From Candidatus Methanoperedens sp. (GTDB taxonomy: Archaea; Halobacteriota; Methanosarcinia; Methanosarcinales; Methanoperedenaceae): a stretch of DNA of 32,000 nucleotides. This document shows, piece after piece, positions 5,652 through 31,664 of the stretch. Position 1 is the stretch's first letter, and each line of letters opens with the position of its first letter. A program made the position numbers and the translations under genes. The stretch is from assembly GCA_041494705.1 (NCBI GenBank), contig JBGQBI010000002.1:1-32000 (forward strand), read 5' to 3'. Under the pieces are notes generated by a model. The model ran no database searches, had not been told where the DNA came from, and saw only the letters and a program-made list of their open reading frames with translations.

Positions 5652-5854
5652 TGATTGAGGTGATAGTTAGATTTGCGCTCTCAGCGCTACCACCATTTTC
5701 GAAAAACCTGTAGGCATCGGTGGATGCCCATGGATTTGCATTTCTTAAGCTTCATGATTTTTTCATGTTTTTATTCAGGCCAAGTATCAATCTTAAAATG
5801 GATAATCGAGGCGCAAAAATACTAAAAGAGGAGTAAATTGCAAATAATTCAGAG

Positions 5855-18526: not shown

Positions 18527-19723
18527 TTACATCTGTGAACAGATTGATTGCTTGAGCATGGAAAAAGTATGGTCTTGTAAACTAGGTTGAAAAATATCGT
18601 GGTTGTCCACGTAGTTTGATGCTAAACAACCTCCCCGAAAGTCTTCAGCAATTCCTTTAGCCTCACAAGCCACACGCAACTGCGAGCTATTAACCAACTC
18701 AAACCGGTTTTTAAGGTGGGTCAAGCCATATCGTACATCACCTAACTTCATTATAAGCTCTTTATTATTCAAAGCCAAAATCTTTGAACACGGTGATGCC
18801 TCTCCATTTACAGCAACTGATATTGAGTTACGACCTGCCTGGCATCCAAAAAATGGCTCCGTGAGTTTTTCATCAAATTCATTAATTCGCAAATCATGGC
18901 GCGGTGTTTGTTTGTACCAATGGAATAATTTCTTTAACTGTTTGCTATAAGAATCTATACTTTCCATAGACCACTCAATACCCGTTGCATAACCAATAAT
19001 AAATTGGTTGATGCCCACTTCATAAAGTCCTAGGACATTTTCAAAGAGATCGGAGGCTGTTGATGGCATAACAGTAATTTTTACACCAACCCATGGTTGT
19101 ACTCTTTTCAATATTTCAAACGCTCTCATTACTTGTTTGAAGGTGCCACTACCATGCTTATCTATTCTGAATCTGTTGTGTGTAGACTCGAGCCCATCGA
19201 CACTTAAAAGAACTTTGACTTTATGCTGAGCAAAGTAATTGACCATATAATCATTTAGCAGAACTCCATTGGTGGTGATATTGAAATCAATAGATTTTCC
19301 GAAAAGTGAAGCCTTTTTTTCAGCATGTTCTGTTACAGATCGAACCGCAGGGAAATTTAACAGAGGCTCGCCACCGAAATGAGTTACATATAATTGAGGT
19401 TCGCCCTGGGCGTAGTCAAAAAGAAGATCTATCGCTGCTTTAGCTGTTTCCAGAGGCATCTTTCGATGCCCATGAAAGGTTTTTTCGAAACAGTAGCTAC
19501 ATGCCAGATTGCAACCCTCCGTATGAATGATTTCTAATTTTGTCAATGGAGGAAACAGGGATCCATTTAACTGCGCTACAGTCTGATATATAAGGTTTCT
19601 AACATTTTCTGAAGATAAGTTCAGGCAATTTTCAAGATGAGAATGGAGCAGACCAATATCTAGAGAATCTGATAATAAATACCCATAGACATCATCAATT
19701 AAATTTTTATGCAATGTTATCAT
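18527..19723 (-). CDS. Radical SAM enzyme with a SPASM/twitch-like C-terminal auxiliary Fe-S domain (anSME-family peptide maturase-like)
   Basis: 398 aa. It has the CX3CX2C motif GCNLACSYCFEK (C71/C75/C78) and GGEPLL. The C-terminal sequence C-x12-G-x4-C (FFGCQAGRNSISVAVNGEASPC) matches the first SPASM/twitch signature. Further Cys residues occur at VACEAK, RGGCLAS and SICSQM. About 60 aa precede the radical SAM core. Confidence 0.8.
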   Translation of the reverse strand: MITLHKNLIDDVYGYLLSDSLDIGLLHSHLENCLNLSSENVRNLIYQTVAQLNGSLFPPLTKLEIIHTEGCNLACSYCFEKTFHGHRKMPLETAKAAIDLLFDYAQGEPQLYVTHFGGEPLLNFPAVRSVTEHAEKKASLFGKSIDFNITTNGVLLNDYMVNYFAQHKVKVLLSVDGLESTHNRFRIDKHGSGTFKQVMRAFEILKRVQPWVGVKITVMPSTASDLFENVLGLYEVGINQFIIGYATGIEWSMESIDSYSKQLKKLFHWYKQTPRHDLRINEFDEKLTEPFFGCQAGRNSISVAVNGEASPCSKILALNNKELIMKLGDVRYGLTHLKNRFELVNSSQLRVACEAKGIAEDFRGGCLASNYVDNHDIFQPSLQDHTFSMLKQSICSQM

Positions 19724-19908: not shown

Positions 19909-20142
19909 CTATCCCATGAACTTAATTGTGCAGTCGAATTGTCCCGAACATGATACTGTACCAGTACACGAGTAGTCACCACACTTAAAACCTGTCCCCG
20001 TGCAAGCATAAGGCATAGGCCTTGGAGACACCACCGCCTTCTCACTAGCAGCTAGAGATTGAGATATTCTTGTAAGAATCTCATTTGCTATATAATTTGA
20101 CAGGCTTTTCAACTCCTCTTGAGACAGTTTCTCGATTACCAT
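19909..20142 (-). CDS. Candidate RiPP precursor peptide: a roughly 44-aa Cys-free leader plus a Cys-rich core of about 33 aa
   Basis: 77 aa: MVIEKLSQEELKSLSNYIANEILTRISQSLAASEKAVVSPRPMP-YACTGTGFKCGDYSCTGTVSCSGQFDCTIKFMG. All five Cys (47, 54, 59, 65, 71) are in the last 31 residues. The gene has its own SD and TATA box and is co-oriented 185 nt upstream of the radical SAM gene. Confidence 0.7.
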   Translation of the reverse strand: MVIEKLSQEELKSLSNYIANEILTRISQSLAASEKAVVSPRPMPYACTGTGFKCGDYSCTGTVSCSGQFDCTIKFMG

Positions 20143-21380: not shown

Positions 21381-21572
21381 ATGGGAGATGGGTTAATGTT
21401 AGAGACATCCAAAGAAAGAGTAAAACTGCTCAAAGCCGGTATCCCAGGCAAGAGAATAGAAACAATGTATATAAAATTCAATAATTTCAAGATAGTCCAG
21501 AAACCTGTACTTTTTGAGATGGTTGAAACCGATTCAAACAATATTGAAAATTATAACAGCCAAAAGCTGTGA
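21381..21572 (+). CDS. Hypothetical small protein (63 aa)
   Basis: The only support is an open frame with an ATG downstream of a TATA-like box. I recognise no family and the composition is AT-rich. Confidence 0.25.
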   Translation: MGDGLMLETSKERVKLLKAGIPGKRIETMYIKFNNFKIVQKPVLFEMVETDSNNIENYNSQKL

Positions 21573-21642
21573 TTTAACACCTTTTCTTACGATTGCTGTT
21601 TAATAAAATTTATATGTGTCAACTGCGTTAGCAGACGAGCCT

Positions 21643-21816
21643 ATGACTGTAAATGTAAATCGTTATAAATGCGGATACTGCGGAGCATGCGTGGGTGTAT
21701 GCCCGGTAGGAGCGCTTGAACTGGTAGAGACATGGATAGAGGTGGATAATACGTGCACAAGTTGCGGCGTATGCGCGAAGATATGTCCCGTTGGCGCACT
21801 GGTGGTTGTTAAATGA
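21643..21816 (+). CDS. 2x[4Fe-4S] mini-ferredoxin, the likely dedicated electron donor of the downstream geranylgeranyl reductase
   Basis: It has two CxxCxxCxxxCP motifs (CGYCGACVGVCPVGAL; CTSCGVCAKICPVGAL). The track ORF starts at GTG 21616, but a TATA-like AAATTTATAT at 21606-21615 makes the ATG at 21643 (MTVNVNRYKCGYC) the more likely start. A ferredoxin-GGR pairing has been described in Methanosarcina acetivorans. Confidence 0.8.
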   Translation: MTVNVNRYKCGYCGACVGVCPVGALELVETWIEVDNTCTSCGVCAKICPVGALVVVK

Positions 21817-22088
21817 AAAACTTTAGGAAAGTTTTATCAAAAACCGTTGCGCCGCTTTACTTCGCAGACACGTATGGCGAAGCCATACGTAAACCTTTAA
21901 GAAAGGTTTATCAAAAACTTTTAGAAAAGTTTATTAAATTCAACACGTATGGCTTTGCCATACGTGGACACTGCGTAAACCGAAGTTTCGGTTTTCAAAC
22001 GACAGGTATGCAAAGCATACCTGAACACCACGTAAACTGGGGTATCGGTTTACGTGGATACCGCATAAAGCGAGGTGTCGCTTTATGA
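21813..22088 (+). CDS. Questionable 91-aa ORF spanning the hairpin array (ATGA overlaps at both ends)
   Basis: The frame is open. Its ATG overlaps the ferredoxin stop (21813-21816) and its TGA overlaps the GGR ATG (22085-22088). About 70 percent of its nucleotides are perfect palindromes, and the protein resembles nothing I know. See the repeat feature and findings. Confidence 0.25.
21817..22087. repeat. Array of nine perfect short hairpins/palindromes (8-10 bp stems, mostly 2-4 nt loops)
   Basis: A 21817-21835 AAAACTTT/agg/AAAGTTTT. B 21870-21890 ACGTATGGC/gaa/GCCATACGT. C 21891-21909 AAACCTTT/aag/AAAGGTTT. D 21915-21932 AAACTTTT/ag/AAAAGTTT. E 21944-21966 CACGTATGGC/ttt/GCCATACGTG. F 21977-21994 AAACCGAA/gt/TTCGGTTT. 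G 22003-22023 CAGGTATGC/aaa/GCATACCTG. H 22028-22057 CCACGTAAAC/tggggtatcg/GTTTACGTGG. I 22064-22087 CATAAAGCGA/ggtg/TCGCTTTATG. Confidence 0.85.
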
Positions 22089-23263
22089 AGAGCAGATATG
22101 ATGTTATTGTGGTTGGAGCAGGCCCGGCAGGTTCAATCACCGCAAAAACCGCCGCATCGGGCGGGCTTGATGTCCTGCTTATTGAAAAGAGGCAGGAGAT
22201 AGGGGACCCTGTGAGATGCGCTGAAGGTGTAGGAAAAGAGGATTTGAAAAAACATATAGAACCTGACCCACGATGGATAGCGGCAGAAGTAAAAGGTTCC
22301 AAGATACTCGCACCTGATGGAACTGAAATCAAAATGTCAGAAGAAGCATCAAGCGGAAAGGCTGGTTACACTCTTGAAAGAAAGGTCTTTGACAGGGCGC
22401 TTGCCCAGCAGGCTGCCATGGCAGGGGCAGAAGTGATGGTAAAGACACGGGCGACCGGATTATTGCGGAATAACGGCAAAATAACCGGGATAAATGCCAT
22501 GTATATGGGGGAAACCCATGAGATTAAAGCCGATATCGTAATAGGCGCTGACGGTGTGGAATCAAAAGTAGGAAGATGGGGCGGAATAGACACGTCATTA
22601 AAGCCCGGAGATATCGATACCTGCGCGCAGTTCCTGGTTTCAAATATCGACGCAGGTGAATACAGTATGTTCTATCTGGGTGAAAAATATACGCCCGGAG
22701 GGTATGTATGGGTATTTCCCAAAGGCAAATACACAGCGAATGTCGGATTGGGGCTCCTTGGAAGCAAATCCGGGAACGTCCGCGCCATTACACTCCTTGA
22801 GAAATTCCTGAAAGATTATATGCCACAGGCTAAAATCCTGGAAATGGTGGTTGGCGGAGTCCCGGTCAGCGGGCCGATTAAACAGACAGTAACGGACGGG
22901 CTGATGCTTGTAGGCGATGCTGCAAGGCAATCGGATCCATTGACTGGCGGCGGTATTATTAACGCAATGGACGCGGGGAAGATGGCAGGAGAAGTCTGTA
23001 TCAAGGCCAAAGAAATGGGTGATTATTCTGTAAGGGTTTTGAAAGAATATGAGGATAAATGGCGCGCAACTATCGGGAAAGAACTCAGCAAATCCCTTGT
23101 TGTCAAGAATATGCTCCTTAAGCTCACGGACGAACAATTGAACCAACTTGCTCATTCGCTTAATGGGATAGATACGAGTAAGATGGCTTTACCAACTTTG
23201 TTGCCTATATTATTCAAAAGAAATCCCAGGATATTGTGGGAATTGAGAACGCTGTTCGTGTAA
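22085..23263 (+). CDS. Geranylgeranyl reductase (digeranylgeranylglycerophospholipid reductase), FAD-dependent
   Basis: 392 aa. It has the Rossmann FAD motif [13 protein letters not shown], plus RCAEGV, GADG and [17 protein letters not shown], which are typical of archaeal GGR. It is preceded by the small ferredoxin. Confidence 0.85.
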
Positions 23264-23298
23264 AAATTAAAAAAAAAATGATTATTCTTTTTTAATTT
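23264..23298. terminator. Bidirectional AT-only palindrome with oligo-T tracts between the convergent GGR and secY genes
   Basis: AAATTAAAAAA (23264-23274) is the reverse complement of TTTTTTAATTT (23288-23298). This gives T-runs on both strands immediately after both stop codons. Archaeal termination typically occurs at oligo-T. Confidence 0.45.
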
Positions 23299-24782
23299 CA
23301 TTCCTTCCCGAAGAAGCTTCTCATCATCGGGTGCATCTCCATCATCTGCTGGCTGGCGATGTCCTCGTACAGCCTGTACATGATGCTGACTGTAAGCAAT
23401 AAACCTGTTCCGCCTGCGCCTCCCAGTGTCCCGAGAAGGCTGGCTACGAGCGTAAGCAATCCTATGAACGCGCCGCCTATTACCGTTACCTTGGGTATAT
23501 ACCGCTGCATTACGCGTTCAAGCGTCCCGCTGCTTCTGCGGTAGCCCGGTATCTGCATCCCTGAATTCTGGATTTTTTCAGCCACGTTCTTTGCACCCAT
23601 ACCTGTTGTTTCAATCCAGAAGAGAGCAAATATTATACCGCCAATTATTAGCATGAAAGCATCGGTCAGGACATGAAGCGCAATCTGCCATATAGCCGGA
23701 GGCGCGACGCTGAGACTTGTGAACTGAGATGACACAAGTGATGGAATCCAGTTATTAGGTCCCTGAATAGGAGAAAGATAATACATAAGACCATTCACAG
23801 GCGTAGCCTGCTTGAATTCGCCCAATAAGCTAATACCTCTGCTTGAGAGGATAAGCCCCACCATCTGGATATTCGCCTGCAGCGCCCTCACCAGGATCAT
23901 GGGCAGAACACTTGCGTAGATAAGTTTCACGGGAAAGCGCCCGCGAGCGCCCCTTACGGCGGCATGAGCCAGCGGGATCTCTATACGGCAGCTTTCTACG
24001 TAAACCACCATCAGATAAATTATGACTGTGCTGATCAGTGCCAGGATACCGCCTTTCACCAACAAGAATAGTACCCCATCACCTGTCAGGAGATAATCAA
24101 GACCGATATTCGATGACGGGCTGGCTATGTGAATCCATTTCGGGATAAGCCCAATCGGGAATCCTGTCTCATCGAGTTTCCAGTTGAATATACCCTGGAC
24201 AATTTGCTGCGATACACCGGCAATAATGAACAACCCCACGCCTGAACCTATGCCCCACTTGGAGACTATCTCATCCATGTAGAGAATCAGCACACCCCCG
24301 ATGCATATCTGTATGAACAGCAATACGGTTATCCAGCTGACACTAATATTGAGCTGCGCTGCAAGCCCTGCATCGGCTTTCATATAGCCGCCAAGGATTT
24401 GAGGCAGCGCTTCAAGGGCTATCATCACAAAGACAAGTAATTTCTGCAGACCCTGGAAAATGGCCTGCTGGTGCGGATTTGTAAGATCCATCCTGATAAC
24501 ATTTGCCCCCACAAGTAATTGCAGAACTATCGATGCCGTTACTATGGGCCCTATTCCAAGTACCATGAGCGAACCCGACGCACCTGCAAAGAATGCGCGG
24601 TAGAGTTCAAAAAGATCTATTGAGCTTTTATCAAGCCCGAACAAAGGTATGTTCGCCAGGGCAAAATAAAGGACGAGAATCCCAAGGGTCCATCCCAGTT
24701 TTTTCTTGAAATGCACATGACCTTCGGGACGCGATACCGCAGGAAGGCGATTCAATAGGGGGGCAAGACTTTCAAATACCAT
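23298..24782 (-). CDS. secY: Preprotein translocase subunit SecY
   Basis: 494 aa with 10 TM segments. It occupies the conserved position at the distal end of the r-protein operon. Typical archaeal SecY segments are present (GIGPIVTASIVLQLL, IGSGVGLFI). Confidence 0.9.
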   Translation of the reverse strand: MVFESLAPLLNRLPAVSRPEGHVHFKKKLGWTLGILVLYFALANIPLFGLDKSSIDLFELYRAFFAGASGSLMVLGIGPIVTASIVLQLLVGANVIRMDLTNPHQQAIFQGLQKLLVFVMIALEALPQILGGYMKADAGLAAQLNISVSWITVLLFIQICIGGVLILYMDEIVSKWGIGSGVGLFIIAGVSQQIVQGIFNWKLDETGFPIGLIPKWIHIASPSSNIGLDYLLTGDGVLFLLVKGGILALISTVIIYLMVVYVESCRIEIPLAHAAVRGARGRFPVKLIYASVLPMILVRALQANIQMVGLILSSRGISLLGEFKQATPVNGLMYYLSPIQGPNNWIPSLVSSQFTSLSVAPPAIWQIALHVLTDAFMLIIGGIIFALFWIETTGMGAKNVAEKIQNSGMQIPGYRRSSGTLERVMQRYIPKVTVIGGAFIGLLTLVASLLGTLGGAGGTGLLLTVSIMYRLYEDIASQQMMEMHPMMRSFFGKE

Positions 24783-24788
24783 ATTCTT

Positions 24789-25235
24789 TTACTCTGCGTT
24801 AGGGGATTGTGACGCTTTTGCCTGTCCTTTTGCTTCTTCGATTTTCTGTTTTGCAACAGATGAGAATTCATTAGCCGTAATAAAGAGCGGTTTTGTTATC
24901 TTTCCACTGCCAAGCACTTTCTCAATACCGATATTTGCAAGGTCTATGTGGAACGCTTCGCCTTTCTTTTCAGCAAAGCCATCTATCACCAGTTGCTCTA
25001 TGGCTTCATCGAGTTCACCTACATTTACGATGACTTTATCGGAAGCAGTCGATAACGGTCTTTTGAACCCATGTTTGCCGAAACTCAAACCCCGCTGCAT
25101 TGACCTGACAAAGTGGTGTTTGCATGTACCTGCATTCCCGCGTCCTCCGCGGCTTCCGCCGCCTCTCCGGTTCTTATGCGTGCCGCCGCCGCAGGTTCTT
25201 GAACCCCTGAATTTCTTTGTTTTTTGTTTGCCCAT
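24789..25235 (-). CDS. rpl15: 50S ribosomal protein uL15 (L15P)
   Basis: 148 aa. It has a Gly/Arg-rich N-terminus ([29 protein letters not shown]) and the expected operon position. Confidence 0.9.
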
Positions 25236-25239
25236 AAAA

Positions 25240-25701
25240 TTACCTCATCTTGTTTAACAGGGTATTGATTTCAGCGCCATGGAATCCGAGGTCTCCACCT
25301 TCCTGGAATGTCCTTTTTGTGCCTTTAAGACCTTTTCTTGCCGGATGCATCCTGAAAACAGGCTTTAATTTAGGAACGTCGGACAAAGATGATTTCCCTT
25401 CACAAATGGCTTTCGCCAGTTCACCAAACGATTTGAATTTAGTATTCTTCGTAAGGTATTCAAGGGTCAAAGCATCTCCGCCTTCGAGCCGTCCTCTATT
25501 TTCCAGCATTTGCTCAAGGGTTTCAGGACTAATAATGCCCCAGGCAATGTAATCTTTTGCTTTATGAATCATCCCCTTGTAATTTGGTGTATCGGGGAGG
25601 ATTACACAATGATTAATCCTGTCAAGTCGTATCATGCTTAATGTATCCCTGATATCCTGTCGCGTCTTCACGCCGCCGCGAAGTCGAACTGCTGCGTACA
25701 T
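25240..25701 (-). CDS. rpl30: 50S ribosomal protein uL30 (L30P)
   Basis: 153 aa. It starts [26 protein letters not shown] and has the expected operon position. Confidence 0.9.
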
Positions 25702-25704
25702 TTT

Positions 25705-26337
25705 TTACACCTTCATTGTTGTGGTTTTCATAAGAGCATCGTATGTTGCCTTGGCAAAATTGATGGTTGTCCGGGTCTCGCCATATACTTTTGTCCAGGC
25801 ATCTTTTATGCCTGCAATTTCAAGTACTTTTTTTGCAGTTCCGCCGGAAGCTAAACCAAGCCCGCGAGGGGCGGGTTTAAGTTCCACTTCTACACTGCCT
25901 GCTTTACCTATAACCTCAAAAGGTACCGTATGACCCAGACCGCAGCCGCATTCCCATGAGCCGCAGCCTCTCTTGATATTGATTATATTCATCTTGGCAG
26001 TATCTATCGCTTTTCTGATAGCCACGCCAACCTGGACATCCTTGCCTTCCCCGATGCCGATAAAACCATCGCCATTGCCTACAATTACCGTGGCTCTGAA
26101 TTTTACCCGCCTGCCGGAATCTGTCATTCTCTGGACCATATTGATATCCAGCACTTCATCTCTTATTTCAGGAAGCAATGCGTCAACAATCTGGTACTCC
26201 CTTATGGGTAGTCCCGACTCAAGGGCTTCGCTCATCGTGGTTACCTGTCCTTCCTTGACTAATTTGCCAAGTCTTGTTTGGGGAACCCATTCTACTTTCT
26301 GTTCTTCGAATTTTCTATCGAATTTTCTATCTGCCAT
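25705..26337 (-). CDS. rps5: 30S ribosomal protein uS5 (S5P)
   Basis: 210 aa. It has [26 protein letters not shown] and the expected operon position. Confidence 0.9.
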
Positions 26338-26341
26338 ATTT

Positions 26342-26866
26342 TCACCTGAATTCGCCCTGAATCTTTTGTTTTACTGCCTCAACTTGCTCTGCAACGTTTG
26401 TTTTTCTGTATTTATCTATATGTTTACCCATAATCCTATCGTCCGATGGGAAAATTGCCGGGTCATGGGGTATATCAAGACCTGCATCTACTGCTCCTTT
26501 CAAAGCTGCAAATAGCCGTCCACCCTGTGTTGTGTGATATAACCCTGTGTCGAGTATTGCCTCTTTCTGCCCTGTTTTTTTTGCACGATACCCGAGCAAT
26601 AACCCTGCCAGGTATGCGGATGCGATATTTCCCGTTCCTGCAGTATAACCGTATTTCTTCAATTCACTGGTATTCGCCGAAACTAGAGTAACATCTCCAG
26701 ATGCGGAAGGTATTACTATCTGTGCCAGTGTATTTTTTGAACTTTTCCTGACCACAAGGCGGGGTTTTCTTGAGATCAGCAGTTGTTTTCTTGCCCGGTA
26801 ATCTGTTTTACCGTCTCTTACTCTTCTGAATTTGACTCTGTATCTTGCTCCTGTTGCCATGTTCAC
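26342..26866 (-). CDS. rpl18: 50S ribosomal protein uL18 (L18P)
   Basis: 174 aa. It has [26 protein letters not shown] and the expected operon position. Confidence 0.9.
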
Positions 26867-27315
26867 ACCACCTTGCCTTTAAGTTGTTCTATGTTAGCGG
26901 TCAGGTGCGCCCTGCTTCGAAATTCCCCGCCTTTCGCTTTGCGGTATAATTTCCTGTATGTGGAAACATCAATGGTATTATTGTCTCTTTTTTCTTTAAG
27001 AAGACTGCGCAGTGCCCTGATTTTCTTCATCCACTGTTCTTTCTTTGGGTTCCGTGCGCCTTTTGCACCGTTTCTTGAGCCGTGACCCTTCCTGTGTCCA
27101 TAATCACGGGCCTCATCAGCTTTTCGTACCCTTCCGCGGCTATTTCCGTTAATTTCTCTTTTGCCGATTTTTTTTTCTCCGATCAATTTGCGGATATCTT
27201 CCCGCGTCAGGGCGGTGGAAATGTCCTTATAGGCTTCGGGATTCATCCATACCCGGTTCACGCCTATGTCCATAACTTCTGCCGCCAATCGCCTCTGGTT
27301 CGCTAAATCTGTCAT
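26863..27315 (-). CDS. rpl19e: 50S ribosomal protein eL19 (L19e)
   Basis: 150 aa. It has LANQRRLAAEVMDIGVNRVWMNPE and a 4-nt overlap with its neighbours. Confidence 0.9.
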   Translation of the reverse strand: MTDLANQRRLAAEVMDIGVNRVWMNPEAYKDISTALTREDIRKLIGEKKIGKREINGNSRGRVRKADEARDYGHRKGHGSRNGAKGARNPKKEQWMKKIRALRSLLKEKRDNNTIDVSTYRKLYRKAKGGEFRSRAHLTANIEQLKGKVV

Positions 27316-27953
27316 GTTGTTTCACTCCTTGCGGGGTTTAAAATCTTCAATCCCAATTCAGCAGCCTTCTTCTCTATAATCGCCCGCTTTCTTGATCCAA
27401 CTGTGTGGGCTATCCTGGCAGCCTGCCTGCCGACCTTAAGAGACTCAATATCTTTGGGGGTTCTCACCAGGACTTCCTCAAATCCGGATGGATGAAGTCC
27501 GCGGACTGCTGCCGGACTGCCATAACCTGCCTCCACAAGCGGAGTTTTCCCTTTGACTGCATAACGTGTCTTGTTATGAATACCGTCAGGTCTCCTCCAG
27601 TAATCTGCAAGCTTCTTTTTCTTATGGGAATCAGTCTGCTTGAACTCGGGTTTCTTGCTTTTCTGTTTCTTCCTGACATTAAGAAGCCTTTTTGTTTCTT
27701 CATCAAGAACAATGGTTATGGGCAGTGCTTCTGTTTTTTCTTCCTGCTTTTCTTCTTCAACAACTATCTTATCGGCAGAAGCTTTGATTTTGTTTGCAAG
27801 TTTTGCGCCTATCCCTTTAATATCTGCAATTTCATCTACGCTTGCCTTTTTTATCGAAGCGATAGTTATAAATCCTGCATCATAAAGTAATTTTGCTTTA
27901 GCTTTGCCAACACCTTCGATGGTTGTGAGCTGTTTGATTGCTTCATCTTCCAT
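27312..27953 (-). CDS. rpl32e: 50S ribosomal protein eL32 (L32e) with an N-terminal double helix-hairpin-helix extension
   Basis: 213 aa. The C-terminal half (WRRPDGIHNKTRY...GYGSPAAVRGLHPSGFEEVLV) is eL32. The N-terminal 70 aa or so carry two HhH motifs (IEGVGKAKAKLLYDAGF; IKGIGAKLANKI). Confidence 0.85.
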   Translation of the reverse strand: MEDEAIKQLTTIEGVGKAKAKLLYDAGFITIASIKKASVDEIADIKGIGAKLANKIKASADKIVVEEEKQEEKTEALPITIVLDEETKRLLNVRKKQKSKKPEFKQTDSHKKKKLADYWRRPDGIHNKTRYAVKGKTPLVEAGYGSPAAVRGLHPSGFEEVLVRTPKDIESLKVGRQAARIAHTVGSRKRAIIEKKAAELGLKILNPARSETT

Positions 27954-27957
27954 TTTT

Positions 27958-28491
27958 TCACCGCCTTTCTACGAGGTAAACCCCGTCCTGGAATACCCTC
28001 GGGTCAAATCTTTTGATTTTTGTAGCCTGGCGGATGTTAGCTGCTGTTTGCCCAACATCTTCCTTATTTATCCCGGAAACAATTACCTGGTCTCCTTTTA
28101 TCATGACCTTTGTATTACCCTGGATATTGGCCTTTCTTGCTCTCTTTTCACCAAGGAAATTGCCTATTATTACCTGCTGTCCTTCGGTTTTCAATTGGAT
28201 AGGGAAATGTGAATAAACCACTTTCATCGTATACTCATATCCACTTGTTACTCCTGCAATCATATTTTTTAGATGGGATTCAAGCGTGCCCAGCATTGCT
28301 AGCTGTTCTCTTCTTGGCATATCGGTCATAACAACGACCTCCGAATCACTTCTCTTTATTGTAATTCCAGGATACCATAGTTCTCTCTGGAGCTGTCCCT
28401 GCGGCCCCGATATCGACACATTCATCTTATCGATGTTGACGTTCACGCCCTCCGGGATTCCTATTGTTCTCTTCGTTTCCATAACATTCAC
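27958..28491 (-). CDS. rpl6: 50S ribosomal protein uL6 (L6P)
   Basis: 177 aa. It has IPEGVNVNIDKMNVSISGPQGQL and the expected operon position. Confidence 0.9.
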   Translation of the reverse strand: MNVMETKRTIGIPEGVNVNIDKMNVSISGPQGQLQRELWYPGITIKRSDSEVVVMTDMPRREQLAMLGTLESHLKNMIAGVTSGYEYTMKVVYSHFPIQLKTEGQQVIIGNFLGEKRARKANIQGNTKVMIKGDQVIVSGINKEDVGQTAANIRQATKIKRFDPRVFQDGVYLVERR

Positions 28492-28881
28492 CTAATAAAC
28501 ATACGCAAGTAACTGGCCGCCAAGACCGCTTTCCCTGGCTTCGGAATGGGTCATAACGCCATTTGGCGTGGTCAGGATAATAGACCCAAAGCCTTTAGCA
28601 GGCAAGAACCGCTTTTCCCATGCCTCGAATTCCATATTCTTTACAGCGTGCCGCGGCCTGATTACTCCGCATTTGTTAATCTTTCCTTTTAGCTGGACTT
28701 TAAATACACCGGATTTCCCATCCTCGATGAATTCGAAATCGCCGATATATCCTTTATCCTTCATGACCTTGAGCACACTTCCTATTACTTTTGAAGCTGG
28801 CCTGATGGTACATTCCGGTTTACCTGTACTTTCTGCATTTTTTATTGTTGATAATGCGTCTGCGAGTGGATCTAGTAACAT
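28492..28881 (-). CDS. rps8: 30S ribosomal protein uS8 (S8P)
   Basis: I take the start at ATG 28881 ([17 protein letters not shown]). The track ORF extends 3 codons further, to a GTG at 28890. Confidence 0.9.
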
Positions 28882-28890
28882 TAAAATCAC

Positions 28891-29043
28891 CTACGTATAT
28901 TTCTCAAAGCCCATGTCATAAGCTATATCCCTGAAGCATTGCCTGCAGAGGTATATATCATATTTCCGAACAAGTCCCTGCTTCCTACCGCAGCGTTTGC
29001 AGACATTGGCACCGGCTCCGAATTTTTTCTTACTCCGTTCCAT
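28891..29043 (-). CDS. rps14: 30S ribosomal protein uS14 (type Z, zinc-binding)
   Basis: This 50-aa ORF is below the track cutoff. It reads [50 protein letters not shown], with CxxC...CxxC. It exactly fills the gap between uL5 and uS8. Confidence 0.9.
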
Positions 29044-29550
29044 TTAAACTACCTCCGCACCGTACTTCTCTTTTAAAAAAGAAATAGCATCTTCCTTTTT
29101 CAACCTGTGATTCATAGGTATTTTGTGTTTCTCTATCTTTCGGGTGTTTATCCTGTATCCCGGGCGCTTTATTGAAACATTTACATCCATGCCGTAAATG
29201 CCTATTGACGGGTCATATTTCATCCCTGGGAAATCGGTATGTTCCTCAATCCCGAATGAAAAGTTGCCATTCTCATCGAACTGGGACGCATTCAGTTTAT
29301 TCTCGACTATTTTTAATGCAGTCTTTAAAAATTCCTGGGCATTCTTTCCTCTTAACGTAACTTTGCATCCTATTGGTTCCCGTTTCTTTATAGAGAAAGT
29401 CGGCAATGTTTTCTTTGCAATTGCCCGGACCGGTTTTTGCTTCACTATTGCCTCAAGCAGGTTTTCAGCATTTATCAACCGTTCACCGCTTTCTCCAGTA
29501 CCTATATGAACCGTAACTTTCTCGATTAAAGGGATTCTCATTGGATTCAT
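29044..29550 (-). CDS. rpl5: 50S ribosomal protein uL5 (L5P)
   Basis: 168 aa. It has [20 protein letters not shown] and the expected operon position. Confidence 0.9.
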
Positions 29551-29552
29551 CT

Positions 29553-30245
29553 TTAAACCACCTTGATTTCAGGCGTTGATTCACCTATGACAAATACATA
29601 ATCTTCAATTGTATCGAATTCCTTTTCATTTGATATGGCTACCATGTTCGTTCCTGAACCTCTTACTTTGCGGATTTGTTTTATCTTCCCGATTTCCCCG
29701 GAGTGTTCTCCGCCGACAATCATGGCAAGGTTTCCCTGTTTATACGGAATGTGTTTGATGATTTTGCGGTCCGGGAAACCCAGAATAACAGTATCAATCG
29801 TGTTGTACTCATTGGATGCCAGGATATTGCTGCCGTCATGCAGGTTGAGCTGCACAGCGCCTTTATTCACAATGGTTTTATTATTTATCCTGCATAATTT
29901 CAAGGCATTTGCATCTTCCTTGTAGAGTTTGAACCTGTTATTGGCATCCAGCAGGACGCGATAATATTCATTGGTTGTCGGGATTGAGACTATATCGAAG
30001 AGCCCTGCAATATACTTATAATTCGTTCTCTTCACTCCATCCACGAAAATATTACCTTCATTAATTATTGTCTTGGCTTCCTTGCTGGTATTGGCTATTT
30101 TTAGCATATCCCTTACAACAACAAGCAATGGAATCCCTGTTCCCTTGGAATGCGGCCCTGCATTGGCTCCAACTACCCAGTGATGCGTCTTTCTTGTAAT
30201 CGGCCATGTTGTTGGTGCCGCCACTCTTTTCTGATGTCTTGCCAT
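29553..30245 (-). CDS. rps4e: 30S ribosomal protein eS4 (S4e)
   Basis: 230 aa. It starts [24 protein letters not shown] and has the expected operon position. Confidence 0.9.
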
Positions 30246-30596
30246 TTAATCACCTAAGCGCTTTTCATCTTTGATTTCTAATTTTGTTATCATTACGTTC
30301 GAAGGCTGTACCGGTCTTGGTACTTCGGTGCCGTCTGATTTGGTGACGCTAACACCGTCTACGGTGATGGTCATTTTTGTAAGATTTACATTGGCTACCT
30401 TTCCTTCTTTACCTTTATGATCACCACGAAGGACTTTTACAGTATCGCCGGTGCGTACAGGTATGCTTTTAATTCCGTGTTTTTCCACAAGTTCGGGGCT
30501 GAGCATAGCGCCCAGCAGTTTATGCCTCCTGTGGAGCGGCGCCTGGTACCTGGATTTTCTCTGTTTTCTTGGTTGTGTTGATACCATGTTTTTCAC
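30246..30596 (-). CDS. rpl24: 50S ribosomal protein uL24 (L24P)
   Basis: 116 aa. It has the KOW motif [21 protein letters not shown]. Confidence 0.9.
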
Positions 30597-30995
30597 CTAC
30601 ACTATAATCGAGGCTGCTGATGATATCTTCGAGTACCGCTCGGCAGCTTCCCTGGCAACAGGGCCTTTTATTTCAGTGCCTTTTGGCACGCCTTCATCAT
30701 CAACTATCACGCATGCATTGTCCTCAAAAGAAACCCGCATTCCATCGGGCCGCCTGAATTCCTTTTTCTGGCGTATTATGACCGCTTTGAAGATTTGTTT
30801 TCTCATTTCCGGGGTTCCTTTCTTGACGCTTACGATAAGAGTATCCCCGATACCTGCGCGAGGGTATCTGTTTCTTACACCGCGATATTTTAATACAGAA
30901 ATAACTTCAACGACACGCGCCCCCGTGTTATCGGCGACTTCCATACGGCTTGCCGTGTTAATTGCACGCGGTATTTTTGCCTTCATCCCTCTCAT
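30597..30995 (-). CDS. rpl14: 50S ribosomal protein uL14 (L14P)
   Basis: 132 aa. It has [14 protein letters not shown]...[11 protein letters not shown]. Confidence 0.9.
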
Positions 30996-31315
30996 TTCGA
31001 CACCTCAATAATAACATAGGATTTTGTCTTGCTAAGTGGTCTGCATTCTGCAATCGTTACATTATCGCCCTCTTTTGCATTTATGCAGGGAGGGTTGTGG
31101 GCATGTACCTTGGTCTTTCTCTTCTCGTACCGCTCGAATTTTGCAATCTTTTTGACAAATGTTCTCTGCACAACTACTGTATTATCCATTTTGTCGCTGA
31201 CTACGACTCCTTTTAAAACCTGCCCTCTTACGGGCAGGACTCCATGAAAAGGACATTTGGGATCAGTACATTCTTTTGCTGGCGTTTGAACATCCAGCCC
31301 GATATCTCGTGTCAT
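30992..31315 (-). CDS. rps17: 30S ribosomal protein uS17 (S17P)
   Basis: I take the start at the internal ATG 31315 ([25 protein letters not shown]). The longer track ORF (to 31399) would overlap the Rnp1 gene. Confidence 0.85.
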
Positions 31316-31328
31316 TATTATACCTCTT

Positions 31329-31664
31329 CTATTTCCTGAATTTTCTCTTAAATTTTGTCTGGATTCTGTTTTCGGGTTGCGAGAGCAATAATCTTCCATC
31401 GACTTTGAGCGTCAGCGGTAAGTAACGTTTACCGTCAACTGCCTGATGAGACGTCCTCATCAATGATGGAATTGTGAATATAAATGATGAACAGGTTTTT
31501 GATACTTTTTTCTCCTGTTCACCGGTTCTTATTGTAAGCATATTTTTTGTTTCATCGATTATTCGTCCCTCTATTCCTATGAGGGAACTGTTTGTGCTTT
31601 CCACTACATTTGTATCAAGACCGATGAGTTCATGGTGTATGATATTGTGCGGTGTCAGCTTCAT
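31329..31664 (-). CDS. rnp1: RNase P protein component 1 (Rpp29/Pop4 homologue)
   Basis: 111 aa. It has [33 protein letters not shown], typical of archaeal Rnp1. It occupies the canonical position between uL29 and uS17. Confidence 0.85.

Follow-up and report, generated by a model that had tools for sequence, protein, structure and literature searches.

On the + strand of the window, by which we mean the whole 32 kb stretch of DNA analysed here, a small ferredoxin (Fd) gene is followed by the gene of a geranylgeranyl reductase (GGR), and a dense block of hairpins lies between the two (Table 1). The first-pass annotation of this DNA had described nine perfect inverted repeats at 21817-22087, and our sequence scan found all nine at these positions. 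Hairpins with a stem of at least 8 bp and a loop of 2-10 nt number 14 in the whole window, nine of them in the spacer block, and their density in the rest of the window is 0.04 per 276 nt. In 2000 dinucleotide-preserving shuffles of the 276-nt block, the mean was 0.066 hairpins (~0.07 expected) and the maximum 3. Hairpins cover 194 of the 276 nt. RNA folding of the block gave -118.3 kcal/mol for the sense strand (z = -10.8), and a z of -9.7 for the antisense strand.

Table 1. Genes, junctions and hairpins of the Fd|GGR locus in window coordinates; for hairpins, stem length (bp) and loop length (nt) are given as stem/loop
Feature	Position	Strand	Description
Ferredoxin gene	21616..21816	+	2x[4Fe-4S], 66 aa; ORF list; Pfam Fer4 E = 8e-14
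Ferredoxin stop codon TGA	21814-21816	+	Within left ATGA
Left ATGA junction	21813..21816	+	Ferredoxin TGA overlapping ATG of element ORF
Inserted element	21817..22088	+	272 nt; junction comparison, tree
Stop-free element ORF (putative relay)	21813..22088	+	91 codons, ending ...RIKRGVAL*; ORF list
Stop TGA of element ORF	22086-22088	+	Overlaps GGR ATG
Head hairpin AAAACTTT-agg-AAAGTTTT	21817..21835	+	8/3
Degenerate tenth hairpin AAACCG-ttgcgc-CGCTTT	21841..21858	+	One mismatch; sequence, stem catalogue
Hairpin ACGTATGGC-gaa-GCCATACGT	21870..21890	+	9/3; GTATG-core family; -12.9 kcal/mol
Hairpin TAAACCTTT-aag-AAAGGTTTA	21890..21910	+	9/3; compensatory variant of head hairpin
Hairpin AAACTTTT-ag-AAAAGTTT	21915..21932	+	8/2; stem catalogue
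Hairpin CACGTATGGC-ttt-GCCATACGTG	21944..21966	+	10/3; -16.3 kcal/mol
Hairpin AAACCGAA-gt-TTCGGTTT	21977..21994	+	8/2; stem catalogue
Hairpin CAGGTATGC-aaa-GCATACCTG	22003..22023	+	9/3; -13.3 kcal/mol
Hairpin CCACGTAAAC-(10 nt)-GTTTACGTGG	22028..22057	+	10/10; -19.0 kcal/mol
Tail hairpin CATAAAGCGA-ggtg-TCGCTTTATG	22064..22087	+	10/4; -13.4 kcal/mol
GAGGTG, Shine-Dalgarno-like 6-mer	22072..22077	+	Spans tail 5' arm and loop; sequence
Right ATGA junction	22085..22088	+	GGR start overlapping stop of element ORF
Geranylgeranyl reductase gene	22085..23263	+	392 aa; Pfam GGR_cat E = 3e-24
Two diverged tandem copies of ~76-nt basic unit	21813..21966	+	Repeat families D2 and D4

Both ends of the block are conserved among the copies of the element described below, namely the head, i.e., the first 33 nt from the ATG at 21813, and the last 27 nt. 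As RNA, the head hairpin is lengthened with one bulge and pairs TGA with TCA, and the hairpin at 22028-22057 extends to 13 bp with two G-U pairs; in other copies the latter forms a perfect 12-bp stem. The degenerate tenth hairpin is perfect elsewhere, as AAACTG-ttgcgt-CAGTTT in seven copies and with the loop ttgcgg in one more. The tail hairpin includes the GGR start codon in its 3' arm, and GAGGTG precedes this codon by 7 nt. Shine-Dalgarno (SD)-type motifs are enriched 5' of starts in these genomes (27% versus 4.7% background), and GAGGTG probably serves as a ribosome-binding site.

A diverged tandem duplication of ~75 nt had also been proposed, and 21813-21890 and 21888-21966 indeed align as two copies of one unit, spaced by 74-75 nt and with an identity of 87-89%. 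This basic unit is composed of a head-type hairpin, a linker hairpin and a GTATG hairpin; L008 has the minimal element, 108 nt long, which is this unit plus a tail. The earlier statement that the block is not a CRISPR array was borne out, as identical direct repeats with regular unique spacers were not seen in it. A regular direct-repeat family is absent from the block, and TRF reports only a 23-nt repeat with 2.1 copies. Membership in a known RNA family was rejected. With Rfam 15 at the gathering score, the sole match in the whole window was a tRNA elsewhere, and a relaxed scan only gave generic miRNA-precursor hairpin matches of 18-27 bits versus cut-offs of 43-249.

Empty and filled junctions

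The hairpin block is an insertion and not an evolved spacer. Ferredoxin orthologues were placed in 39 GGR loci by tblastn, and in 36 of these, Methanosarcina among them, the two genes overlap (ATGA) or abut, with no spacer present. The ancestral state of the Fd|GGR junction is a stop and a start codon overlapping as ATGA; the left ATGA of the window is the equivalent of this ferredoxin-stop/GGR-start overlap of the empty alleles. At the filled junction here, the 272-bp element lies between two ATGA copies. In the tree, the window lineage is nested among relatives with an empty junction, and in a second filled clade, L008 and L042, the versions are 104 and 240 nt long and quite unlike that of the window. 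Presence/absence alleles were found at three sites, each with ATGA on both sides and flanks otherwise unchanged. Besides Fd|GGR, these are L30|L15, with 15 empty loci versus the filled L007 (n = 16), and L32e|L19e, at which the window itself is empty (...ATGAcagat) and L042 is filled (...ATGA[aaaac...gcttt ATGA]cggat). Because ATGA is repeated at both sides, a placement of the element at 21813-22084 is equally good, and the flanking pair fits a target-site duplication as well as a single target copy joined by an ATGA at the end of the element itself.

The first-pass annotation had considered a structured spacer, operator array or ncRNA dedicated to ferredoxin and GGR. Since 36 of the 39 orthologous junctions do without a spacer, a locus-specific role of the element in ferredoxin/GGR expression is not supported. 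An assembly or chimera artefact had likewise been allowed for. Palindromes are hard to assemble, and the related assembly L005 has a gap of ~90 nt exactly over the Fd|GGR junction. However, the identical 91-aa ORF is found on five contigs that were assembled independently and come from different assemblies, one of them, Ga0534157_0000001 of JGI 3300053059, 2.07 Mb long, and related copies occur in dozens of independent MAGs and metagenomes. Because of the five identical ORFs, we give an artefact next to no chance.

A dispersed mosaic family in Candidatus Methanoperedens

The modular element occurs at ~17 distinct sites besides Fd|GGR in Candidatus Methanoperedens, ribosomal-protein operons included. 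Other sites are RNase P p30|Rpp14, L15e|PF01877, GTPase|OapB, EamA|X, aminotransferase|CobD and ?|NurA. Among 57 mosaic ORF matches, the named ones all belong to Methanoperedens or to an 'uncultured archaeon'. Within the 32 kb window no second copy was found. A block of 78 nt at 21953-22030 is 100% identical to L040:10121-10198, which lies on the same 2.07 Mb contig as the Fd|GGR copy and ~200 kb from it.

The copies have one architecture in common. Head and tail hairpins are conserved, and the perfect-hairpin modules between them are shuffled. Twenty copies hold 140 perfect hairpins with 45 distinct stems, and the modules are shuffled among copies. Loops may appear flipped with the sense orientation kept (GAA/TTC, TTT/AAA). 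Turnover is rapid, as module content at one fixed site differs greatly in sister lineages. In L074 and L063, two elements stand in tandem with one ATGA common to both, which is expected if each insertion recreates its target. Related 'free' hairpin arrays exist that have neither head, tail nor ORF.

The element hence is a dispersed, insertion-polymorphic, mosaic palindromic repeat, found so far only in Candidatus Methanoperedens. Among the four options that the first-pass annotation had offered, a REP-like palindromic cluster comes closest, the family being dispersed, modular and insertion-polymorphic. That annotation thus holds in part; the insertion and the 91-codon ORF had been overlooked. 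It had also known of no described archaeal element of this layout. The searchable literature on palindromic, MITE, hairpin or REP elements of Methanoperedens/ANME yielded nothing on such elements, and the hairpin-mosaic repeat apparently is undescribed. Viral contigs scanned for the commonest hairpin gave 0 matches, and a viral origin is therefore without evidence.

Start codons and an open frame without a conserved peptide

At 16 of ~17 sites, a real gene downstream starts with the 3' ATG of the element. Of the sense-oriented tail ATGs, 19 of 19 begin a long ORF, a frame that reaches the contig end, or a further element, versus ORFs of 13-82 aa in mirror-orientation controls. An exception is L074:14055-14225, which follows the stop of one gene and has no gene downstream. 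An upstream ATGA overlap is present at nine distinct sites. ATGA sites number 163 in intergenic sequence versus 45 at gene starts. All characterised copies are separate ORFs located between genes or 5' of a gene. Some of the copies were collected via called ORFs, which introduces an ascertainment bias, and a sample of eight distinct sites obtained by DNA pattern gave the same picture. The placement fits a targeting of starts as well as survival only at starts, and the two cannot be separated.

The block had been treated as non-coding, but it maintains an open frame with an ATGA overlap at each end. In 2608 nt of copies, frame 0 contains three stops, each of the other five frames 25-66. In complete copies the ORF that starts in the head stops within the tail hairpin, with 0, 6 or 20 nt left to the AUG; only in L044 has the head ATG been lost. 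Copies that use the third frame have ATG and not AGG as head loop and thereby avoid a TAG stop.

A conserved protein-coding pattern had been named in advance as speaking against the earlier reading; we find that the frame is kept and that the peptide is not conserved. A conserved protein family was rejected. The loop codon in TYGxAIR varies freely (F, E, S, G, W, A or T), and identical DNA modules appear in two or three reading frames (KNFRKVL / KTLGKFY / KKLYES). The element ORF matched no family in Pfam. Together with Pfam, the search comprised a word search of 5.8 billion proteins and an exhaustive HMMER search, and the latter returned 20 clusters only, all of the mosaic kind, plus three unrelated repetitive proteins (P0058-P0060). 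P0058 and P0060 were weak long matches and were dismissed as unrelated.

Perfect stems and a probable DNA-level process

Perfect palindrome accounts for ~67% of the element sequence. The stems are nearly all perfectly Watson-Crick paired, only ~5 in the stem catalogue having any mismatch, and positions next to the stems show 11 G-T versus 14 A-C oppositions. In many stems a GTATG/CATAC core is kept while the flanking stem positions covary. The first-pass annotation had concluded that structure is conserved while sequence drifts. The compensatory double changes in the stems are confirmed, but the implied selection on RNA structure is not, as an excess of G-U pairs is absent. We likewise dropped a conserved RNA structure with covariation as a candidate, because the G-U wobble asymmetry of a sense RNA was not found. 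From the perfect stems and the missing G-U excess it follows that the hairpins look maintained at the DNA level and not as RNA, and stem perfection points to a palindrome process acting on DNA.

Probable mobility and known repeat systems

In agreement with the earlier annotation, no transposase was found among the 17 window genes scanned, nor among the called genes of seven context loci (L040-42, L072-75). Terminal inverted repeats were not detected either, the head and the reverse complement of the tail being identical at 12 of 40 positions with a negative global alignment score. The element was probably moved by some enzyme, with ATGA as target or as duplication.

The element resembles REP/BIME and MITE elements. 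Like the REP/BIME repeats of Enterobacteria and Pseudomonas, it consists of multicopy short palindromic units in mosaic arrays that are often located between co-transcribed genes, vary among strains and do not themselves code for anything. A REP bears GTAG (or CGTC) as an unpaired tag, and RAYT transposases are associated with these repeats (PMC3733652, PMC2817692). In contrast, the element is nearly devoid of GTAG, which occurs once, and CTAC not at all, versus ~16 expected in ~4.2 kb of 20 copies, and no RAYT was seen among the genes scanned. CGTC is found 22 times in the 20 copies, yet does not consistently flank the hairpins, whose most frequent 5' flanks are ATGA, ACGA and TACG. Moreover, REPs follow stop codons and are untranslated, whereas the element begins on a stop/start overlap, keeps its frame open and supplies the next AUG. 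REP stems are imperfect, those of the element perfect and in an archaeal host.

Prokaryotic MITEs, such as SM1-4 of Sulfolobus and the IS200/IS605-derived PATEs of Haloquadratum, are small, non-autonomous, multicopy and insertion-polymorphic like the element, and the short direct repeat (ATGA) on both sides is MITE-like as well. As in PATEs, there is a hairpin at each end and no terminal inverted repeat; together with the constant ATGA, this would be consistent with a PATE-type element. Unlike MITEs, it is associated in sense with gene starts and has a shuffled hairpin interior. Its ATGA adjoins or lies within the end hairpins, which differs from the geometry of the IS608 type, whose cleavage sites are at some distance from the foot of the hairpin.

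BOX elements of Streptococcus pneumoniae (boxA-boxB(n)-boxC) also combine fixed head and tail modules with a variable internal number and are intergenic, dispersed and strongly folded. Some of them encode small ORFs (PMC10969869). They are, however, bacterial, unrelated in sequence, and have neither a fixed link to start codons or stop/start overlaps nor a maintained relay frame. Rickettsia palindromic elements (RPEs), according to the same review (PMC10969869), are inserted in-frame into protein genes of the host and end up in the encoded protein. RPEs and the element alike are palindromic, selfish and compatible with translation, and from the open frame of the element ribosomes would read a by-product peptide, but an RPE is a single palindrome of ~100-150 bp, whereas the element is an array of many short hairpins and constitutes a separate mini-ORF between two genes, bounded by ATGA overlaps. 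Organelles also contain selfish short palindromic repeats, e.g., Volvox mtDNA/ptDNA (PMC2670323), which resemble the element as short hairpin families that proliferate and diversify by compensatory change, but they are eukaryotic-organellar and show no connection with start codons or open frames.

Insertion, a proposed translational relay and alternative explanations

Overall, we consider it rather probable that a mosaic palindromic element was inserted at an ATGA overlap and is translated through by a relay. The module string has grown by duplication of the ~76-nt unit and probably also by exchange with other copies. A ribosome ending the ferredoxin gene would re-initiate at the head AUG, translate through the hairpin array and thereby melt the hairpins, terminate in the tail hairpin and re-initiate on the GGR AUG; alternatively, GGR initiation could start from the SD of the tail itself. 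The basic peptide would be a by-product. Such a translational relay from ferredoxin to GGR is suggested by the frame kept open across the element. In archaea and bacteria, ATGA overlaps are an established substrate for termination-reinitiation, as described by Huber et al. 2019 (PMC6728339). Both ends of the element ORF are 4-nt ATGA overlaps as in the coupled genes treated there. The study concerns ordinary gene pairs, whereas the element would interpose a third ORF, one without apparent meaning, and use the mechanism twice.

We may further assume that the insertion is nearly neutral, even in essential operons, and that the element is tolerated inside operons because ribosomes would translate through it. 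More tentatively, and with somewhat less than an even chance, it may represent a novel type of mobile DNA in archaea, homing to ATGA stop/start overlaps and start codons by an enzyme or mechanism new to REP, MITE and IS200-type elements and bringing along a 'translation pass-through kit'. This kit would comprise the head AUG, a stop-free frame over the shuffled hairpins, and a tail hairpin with SD and regenerated AUG, and would allow the colonisation of ribosomal-protein and other essential operons with translational coupling intact.

As a host regulatory RNA, placed under selection or exapted and recruited to numerous operon junctions for its usefulness, the element could act between cistrons and set the ferredoxin:GGR ratio, stabilise or process the mRNA, or act as a thermo- or ligand-sensing switch. 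The very strong fold (z = -10.8), the downstream AUG sequestered in the tail stem next to an SD-like loop, and the strictly sense orientation at operon junctions, including those of ribosomal-protein operons, would agree with this, as would the analogy with bacterial REPs, which modulate intercistronic mRNA stability. We nevertheless regard it as unlikely, with the element missing at 36/39 Fd-GGR and 15/16 L30|L15 junctions, a module content at one site that is very different in sister lineages, junctions that are functionally unrelated and stems of a DNA-type perfection without G-U pairs. The perfect DNA palindromes, with their conserved GTATG/CATAC core and covarying flanks, could also be read as binding sites, in an operator array or a cruciform platform, of a palindrome-recognising protein with a role in transcription regulation or chromosome structure. 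However, the element lies inside operons at start codons and not at promoters, and DNA binding leaves the sense orientation and the open-frame constraint unexplained, which makes this account highly improbable.

Spread might have occurred without transposition, by slippage or template switching in place followed by gene conversion or recombination via head and tail or via ATGA microhomology. Perfect stems, sense-oriented loop flips, tandem unit duplications and the fast module turnover at a fixed site are in line with such a process, and no transposase was found among the scanned genes. Precise ATGA-flanked insertions at unrelated loci are, however, hard to obtain without a site-specific step, and the tandem elements of L074 and L063 with their common ATGA also speak against it; we deem it decidedly unlikely. 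Very unlikely, too, is a real small protein gene, in which case a mobile cassette would encode a family of basic peptides, 27-130 aa long and built from repeats. In favour of it, the ORF keeps its ATG and its stop, has coupled overlaps as in genuine operon genes and is annotated by gene callers in many assemblies, but its loop codons are free, the same DNA is read in different frames, its length varies 4-fold at the same site, it has neither a Pfam family nor relatives outside the set, and ~67% of it is perfect palindrome.

If the translated insertion that we favour is correct, selfish DNA would inhabit coupled operons by being translatable and by passing the ribosome to the next gene. Archaea would thereby gain their first described REP/BIME-like hairpin-mosaic family and a natural test bed for termination-reinitiation over strong secondary structure. 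The host of the element is the methane-oxidising Methanoperedens, a lineage of which both genomes and extrachromosomal elements are being actively studied. Since element length varies among strains at fixed sites, it could serve as a strain marker. The elements may also cause mis-assembly at operon junctions, as the gap in L005 suggests. In many assemblies, gene callers annotate the element ORFs as dozens of 'hypothetical proteins'.

Results

Pfam bears out the earlier assignment of the two neighbouring genes to ferredoxin (Fd; here of the 2x[4Fe-4S] type) and geranylgeranyl reductase (GGR). Their 'spacer' is filled exactly by a 91-codon stop-free frame, here called the relay ORF, which the first-pass annotation had missed. 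Its ATG overlaps the ferredoxin stop and its TGA the GGR ATG, in each case within an ATGA. Our comparison drew on species-level genomes and covered 39 GGR loci, of which Methanoperedens and its relatives supplied 33 and Methanosarcina 6. In 36 of the 39, Fd and GGR overlap or abut directly (...GTTAAATGAAAAAC...), without any spacer. The Fd-GGR block is an insertion, a point that had likewise gone unseen. Three loci (L-numbers denote comparison loci) are exceptions: L008 has the element in a 104-nt version, L030 holds a 1.2 kb insert unrelated to it, and L005 shows a gap of ~90 nt relative to empty alleles that joins ferredoxin codon 48 out of frame to GGR codon 13. L005 is among the closest relatives of the window by GGR protein identity (97%), and its gap probably reflects faulty assembly or a deletion that a palindromic insert triggered. 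In the GGR tree, the window lineage branches from within a group of empty relatives (L001-L004, L006), and the filled loci L008 and L042 (the latter with 240 nt) pair separately. The same ATGA must then have gained the element at least twice, or precise loss must have happened several times. The L030 insert, in a Methanoperedens-related genome, holds an extra GGR-like/FAD-oxidoreductase-like gene and a partial duplicate of the ferredoxin promoter and 5' end. Directly 5' of the ferredoxin gene lies a 63-aa ORF (MGDGLMLETSKERVKLLKAGIPGK...) without Pfam family; a similar ORF occurs at the same place in L042 and is gene-called in L076 and L077.

All nine perfect inverted repeats reported earlier were recovered exactly where they had been placed, and the proposed tandem duplication of ~75 nt is real, its two stretches aligning as copies of one unit. 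With a stem of ≥8 and a loop of 2-10, perfect hairpins number 14 in the 32 kb window; nine lie in the Fd-GGR block, of which hairpins cover 194/276 nt. In 2000 dinucleotide-preserving shuffles of these 276 nt, hairpins averaged 0.066 and never exceeded 3. The block folds as RNA with -118 kcal/mol (z = -10.8) on the sense strand and with z = -9.7 on the antisense strand; single hairpins contribute -13 to -19 kcal/mol each, and the A/U-rich first hairpin is far weaker (-4.8 kcal/mol).

Databases hold 57 relatives of the relay ORF (52-130 aa), all unnamed or from Methanoperedens/'uncultured archaeon' and none with a Pfam domain; searching 1.84 billion cluster representatives exhaustively with HMMER brought up nothing beyond this family. 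The relatives are mosaics, nearly all starting MKNF[RK]KVLSK and ending RIKRGVAL (or VIKGRNPL), between which modules, e.g. of the TYGx type, are shuffled and duplicated. Genomic context was checked for eight relatives, and DNA-level searches gave more copies; a metagenome scan with one hairpin (ACACGTATGGCNNNGCCATACGT), free of ORF-calling bias, returned 29 loci. All searches combined gave about 17 distinct sites, namely the junctions Fd-GGR, ribosomal proteins L30-L15, L32e-L19e and L15e-PF01877, RNase P p30-Rpp14, GTPase-OapB, EamA-X, aminotransferase-CobD and ?-NurA, the start of a PUA-domain gene, a Pelota-like gene, and several others. The 2.07 Mb contig holding the window sequence carries at least two more copies (L040), with one 78-nt block 100% identical to part of the Fd-GGR copy. 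Besides Fd-GGR, empty and filled alleles can be compared cleanly at two sites. Both lie in the ribosomal-protein (spc-type) operon that makes up the right third of the window and has SecY at its end; here the L30-L15 and L32e-L19e junctions are empty, but each is filled in other Methanoperedens genomes. L32e-L19e reads ...caacATGAcagat... in the window and ...agaaATGA[aaaac...gtcgctttATGA]cggat... in L042, and L30-L15 is empty in 15 loci and filled in L007. We are highly confident that the Fd-GGR block is an inserted, dispersed repeat element.

The first 33 nt of the element (ATGAAAAACTTTAGGAAAGTTTTATCAAAAAC; head hairpin) and its last 27 nt are near-invariant across sites and genomes. Head variation is mostly in the hairpin loop or compensatory, e.g. 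AAAACTTT/AAAGTTTT to AAACCTTT/AAAGGTTT, and tails, the conserved last hairpins, fall into two classes (...CATAAAGCGAGGTGTCGCTTTATGA and ...CATAAAGGGGCGTAACCCTTTATGA). The smallest elements (84-108 nt) consist of head, one hairpin and tail, longer ones have added units, and tandem pairs with one common ATGA occur in L074 and L063. In 535 kb of DNA, each of the 19 sense tail ATGs begins an ORF of 72-392 aa or a further element, or has its frame cut off by the contig end, whereas the mirror-orientation control gave ORFs of only 13-82 aa. The tail ATG is a real start codon of the downstream gene. Since intergenic ATGA is commoner away from gene starts than at them (163 vs 45 in 131 kb, ~3.6 to 1), sense placement at gene starts in 16 of the ~17 sites is far from chance; eight sites found by DNA pattern only fit the same rule without exception. 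Nine sites have a co-directional gene upstream whose stop overlaps the head ATG, and these insertions occupy former ATGA stop/start overlaps. Gene-start placement may reflect targeting of start codons or survival only there. One head-containing copy, in L074, departs from the rule: it starts on the ATGA where an IspD-like gene terminates, lacks tail hairpin and downstream gene, and has ATGAACGCA on either side. On one contig (L045), the element precedes each of three paralogous genes (MTEPF... start) with a common left flank GGACTGGCTTTCC.GT, the third copy having TTG for its tail ATG; either the element was duplicated along with the gene, or both form a larger repeat unit.

Coordinates of the element, its relatives and neighbouring features
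Feature	Location	Strand
Ferredoxin gene	window 21616-21816	+
GGR gene	window 22085-23263	+
Relay ORF	window 21813-22088	+
Element (272 nt)	window 21817-22088
Left ATGA	window 21813-21816
Right ATGA	window 22085-22088
Duplicated unit, copy 1	window 21813-21890
Duplicated unit, copy 2	window 21888-21966
78-nt block	window 21953-22030
78-nt block, identical copy	L040:10121-10198
63-aa ORF	window 21381-21572	+
Radical SAM gene	window 18527-19723	-
77-aa ORF	window 19909-20142	-
Ribosomal-protein operon	window 23298-31664	-
Empty L30-L15 junction	window around 25235-25240
Empty L32e-L19e junction	window 27312-27315
Fd-GGR gap	L005:1530-1545
Fd-GGR unrelated insert	L030:1781-3000
Copy without tail	L074:14055-14225
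Copies before paralogues	L045:213-296, 1675-1914, 5744-5824
Free hairpin array	L012:4260-4365
Free hairpin array	L043:4208-4296
Free hairpin array	L046:13-204
Free hairpin array	L052:724-814
Free hairpin array	L056:704-1103
Free hairpin array	L069:894-1293
Free hairpin array	L071:6-171
Larger-repeat copies	L057:1544-1626, 3731-3813, 4228-4331	-
T-arm-like stretch	L055:2100-2140	-

Discussion

An assembly or chimera artefact, which the first-pass annotation had named as a possible undoing of its reading, is ruled out by the identical relay ORF on five independently assembled contigs, one of 2.07 Mb. That annotation had also considered that a conserved protein-coding pattern might make the palindromes incidental to a gene. 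The frame is indeed kept open: 14 copies (2608 nt) contain 3 stops in frame 0 and 25-66 in each of the other five frames, and the ORF opened by the head ATG stops within the tail hairpin, 0, 6 or 20 nt short of the downstream AUG, in every complete copy except L044, whose head ATG is gone. Copies reading the head hairpin in the third frame (MKKLYES...) have ATG, not AGG, in the head loop, which removes that frame's TAG. The peptide, however, varies. At its loop codon, TYGxAIR has any of F, E, S, G, W, A and T, one and the same stretch of DNA falls into different frames in different copies (e.g. KNFRKVL vs KTLGKFY), and element length at a single site differs up to four-fold between lineages; on these grounds the frame is conserved and the peptide is not, and we reject a protein gene family.

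Neither is the element probably an RNA-structure family. Perfect hairpins (stem ≥6) make up 67% of the sequence of 20 copies; they number 140 and have 45 different stem sequences. Stems are nearly all perfectly Watson-Crick paired, with a mismatch in only about five, G-T shows no excess over A-C in these copies (11 vs 14), and the sense strand has loops in either orientation (GAA/TTC, TTT/AAA). Such a pattern suits a DNA-level process equalising the two arms, such as template switching or arm-to-arm correction, better than selection on folded RNA. Rfam gave no match for the element. Many stems have a GTATG/CATAC core with covarying flanking positions, which could be a recognition motif.

The element works like the mosaic repeats REP/BIME and BOX, and resembles Rickettsia RPEs in its compatibility with translation, although RPEs sit inside host genes. 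It differs from REPs by the absence of a GTAG or CGTC tag and of any RAYT seen with it, and by an apparently maintained ORF where REPs are untranslated; from MITEs it is set apart in that our search found no terminal inverted repeats. Among archaea, a 2024 review of prokaryotic MITEs names cases only from Sulfolobus, Halobacterium, Haloquadratum, Desulfurococcus and few others and mentions none tied to start codons or translational coupling, and the searchable literature yielded no palindromic, MITE, hairpin or REP elements of Methanoperedens/ANME. Features and literature together thus place the element among dispersed palindromic repeats, from which it stands out in two ways: it sits strictly on stop/start overlaps, and it maintains a relay frame.

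Termination-reinitiation coupling at ATGA overlaps is established for archaea and bacteria (Huber et al. 2019, PMC6728339). A ribosome terminating at the ferredoxin UGA would re-initiate at the head AUG, translate through the hairpins while unfolding them, and terminate in the tail hairpin. The GGR AUG sits in the 3' arm of this hairpin (-13.4 kcal/mol) with GAGGUG 7 nt upstream, and in these genomes SD-like motifs (≥5-mer match to AGGAGGTGATC) occur at 27% of starts vs 4.7% background; initiation at the GGR AUG might be by the same ribosome or by a new one recruited by the tail SD. Ribosome passage would render the element near neutral inside operons, and copies gaining stops or losing the tail would be purged together with downstream gene expression, which would explain the open frame. 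We lean towards this full explanation, translational relay included. As to movement, no transposase was found in the window and context loci. The two ATGA copies may stem from duplication of a 4-bp target; alternatively, the target may adjoin an element whose own end reads ATGA, a scheme like that of IS200/IS605 in logic and unlike it in geometry.

'Free' hairpin arrays have modules in common with the element (e.g. ACGTATGCC...GGCATACGT) and lack head, tail and open frame. They also hold other hairpin families (GCGCCCTCCCGAGGCGCAACTCGGGAGG, CGAAACCTAACGGTTCTC, ACGGATACG...CGTATCCGT) and a recurrent GATGAACGCAGAT motif. These arrays may be decayed copies at neutral sites or the wider pool that supplies modules to the sub-family formed by the element; Methanoperedens intergenic DNA seems to contain a wider 'hairpin soup'. 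In L057, three larger-repeat copies have identical left flanks (...CACGGAGCGCACGG followed by ATGAAAACCTTT...) leading into a head-like hairpin and other hairpin modules, which suggests a longer composite repeat family. A tRNA T-arm-like stretch (GGTTCGAGTCTGGG) beside a hairpin array in L055 may be what is left of a tRNA or of an attachment site.

Elsewhere in the window, a 77-aa ORF without Pfam family has a Cys/Gly/Thr-rich C-terminus (...CTGTGFKCGDYSCTGTVSCSGQFDCTIKFMG); directly downstream lies a radical SAM enzyme (PF04055 + Fer4_12), and the two may form a RiPP precursor/maturase pair.
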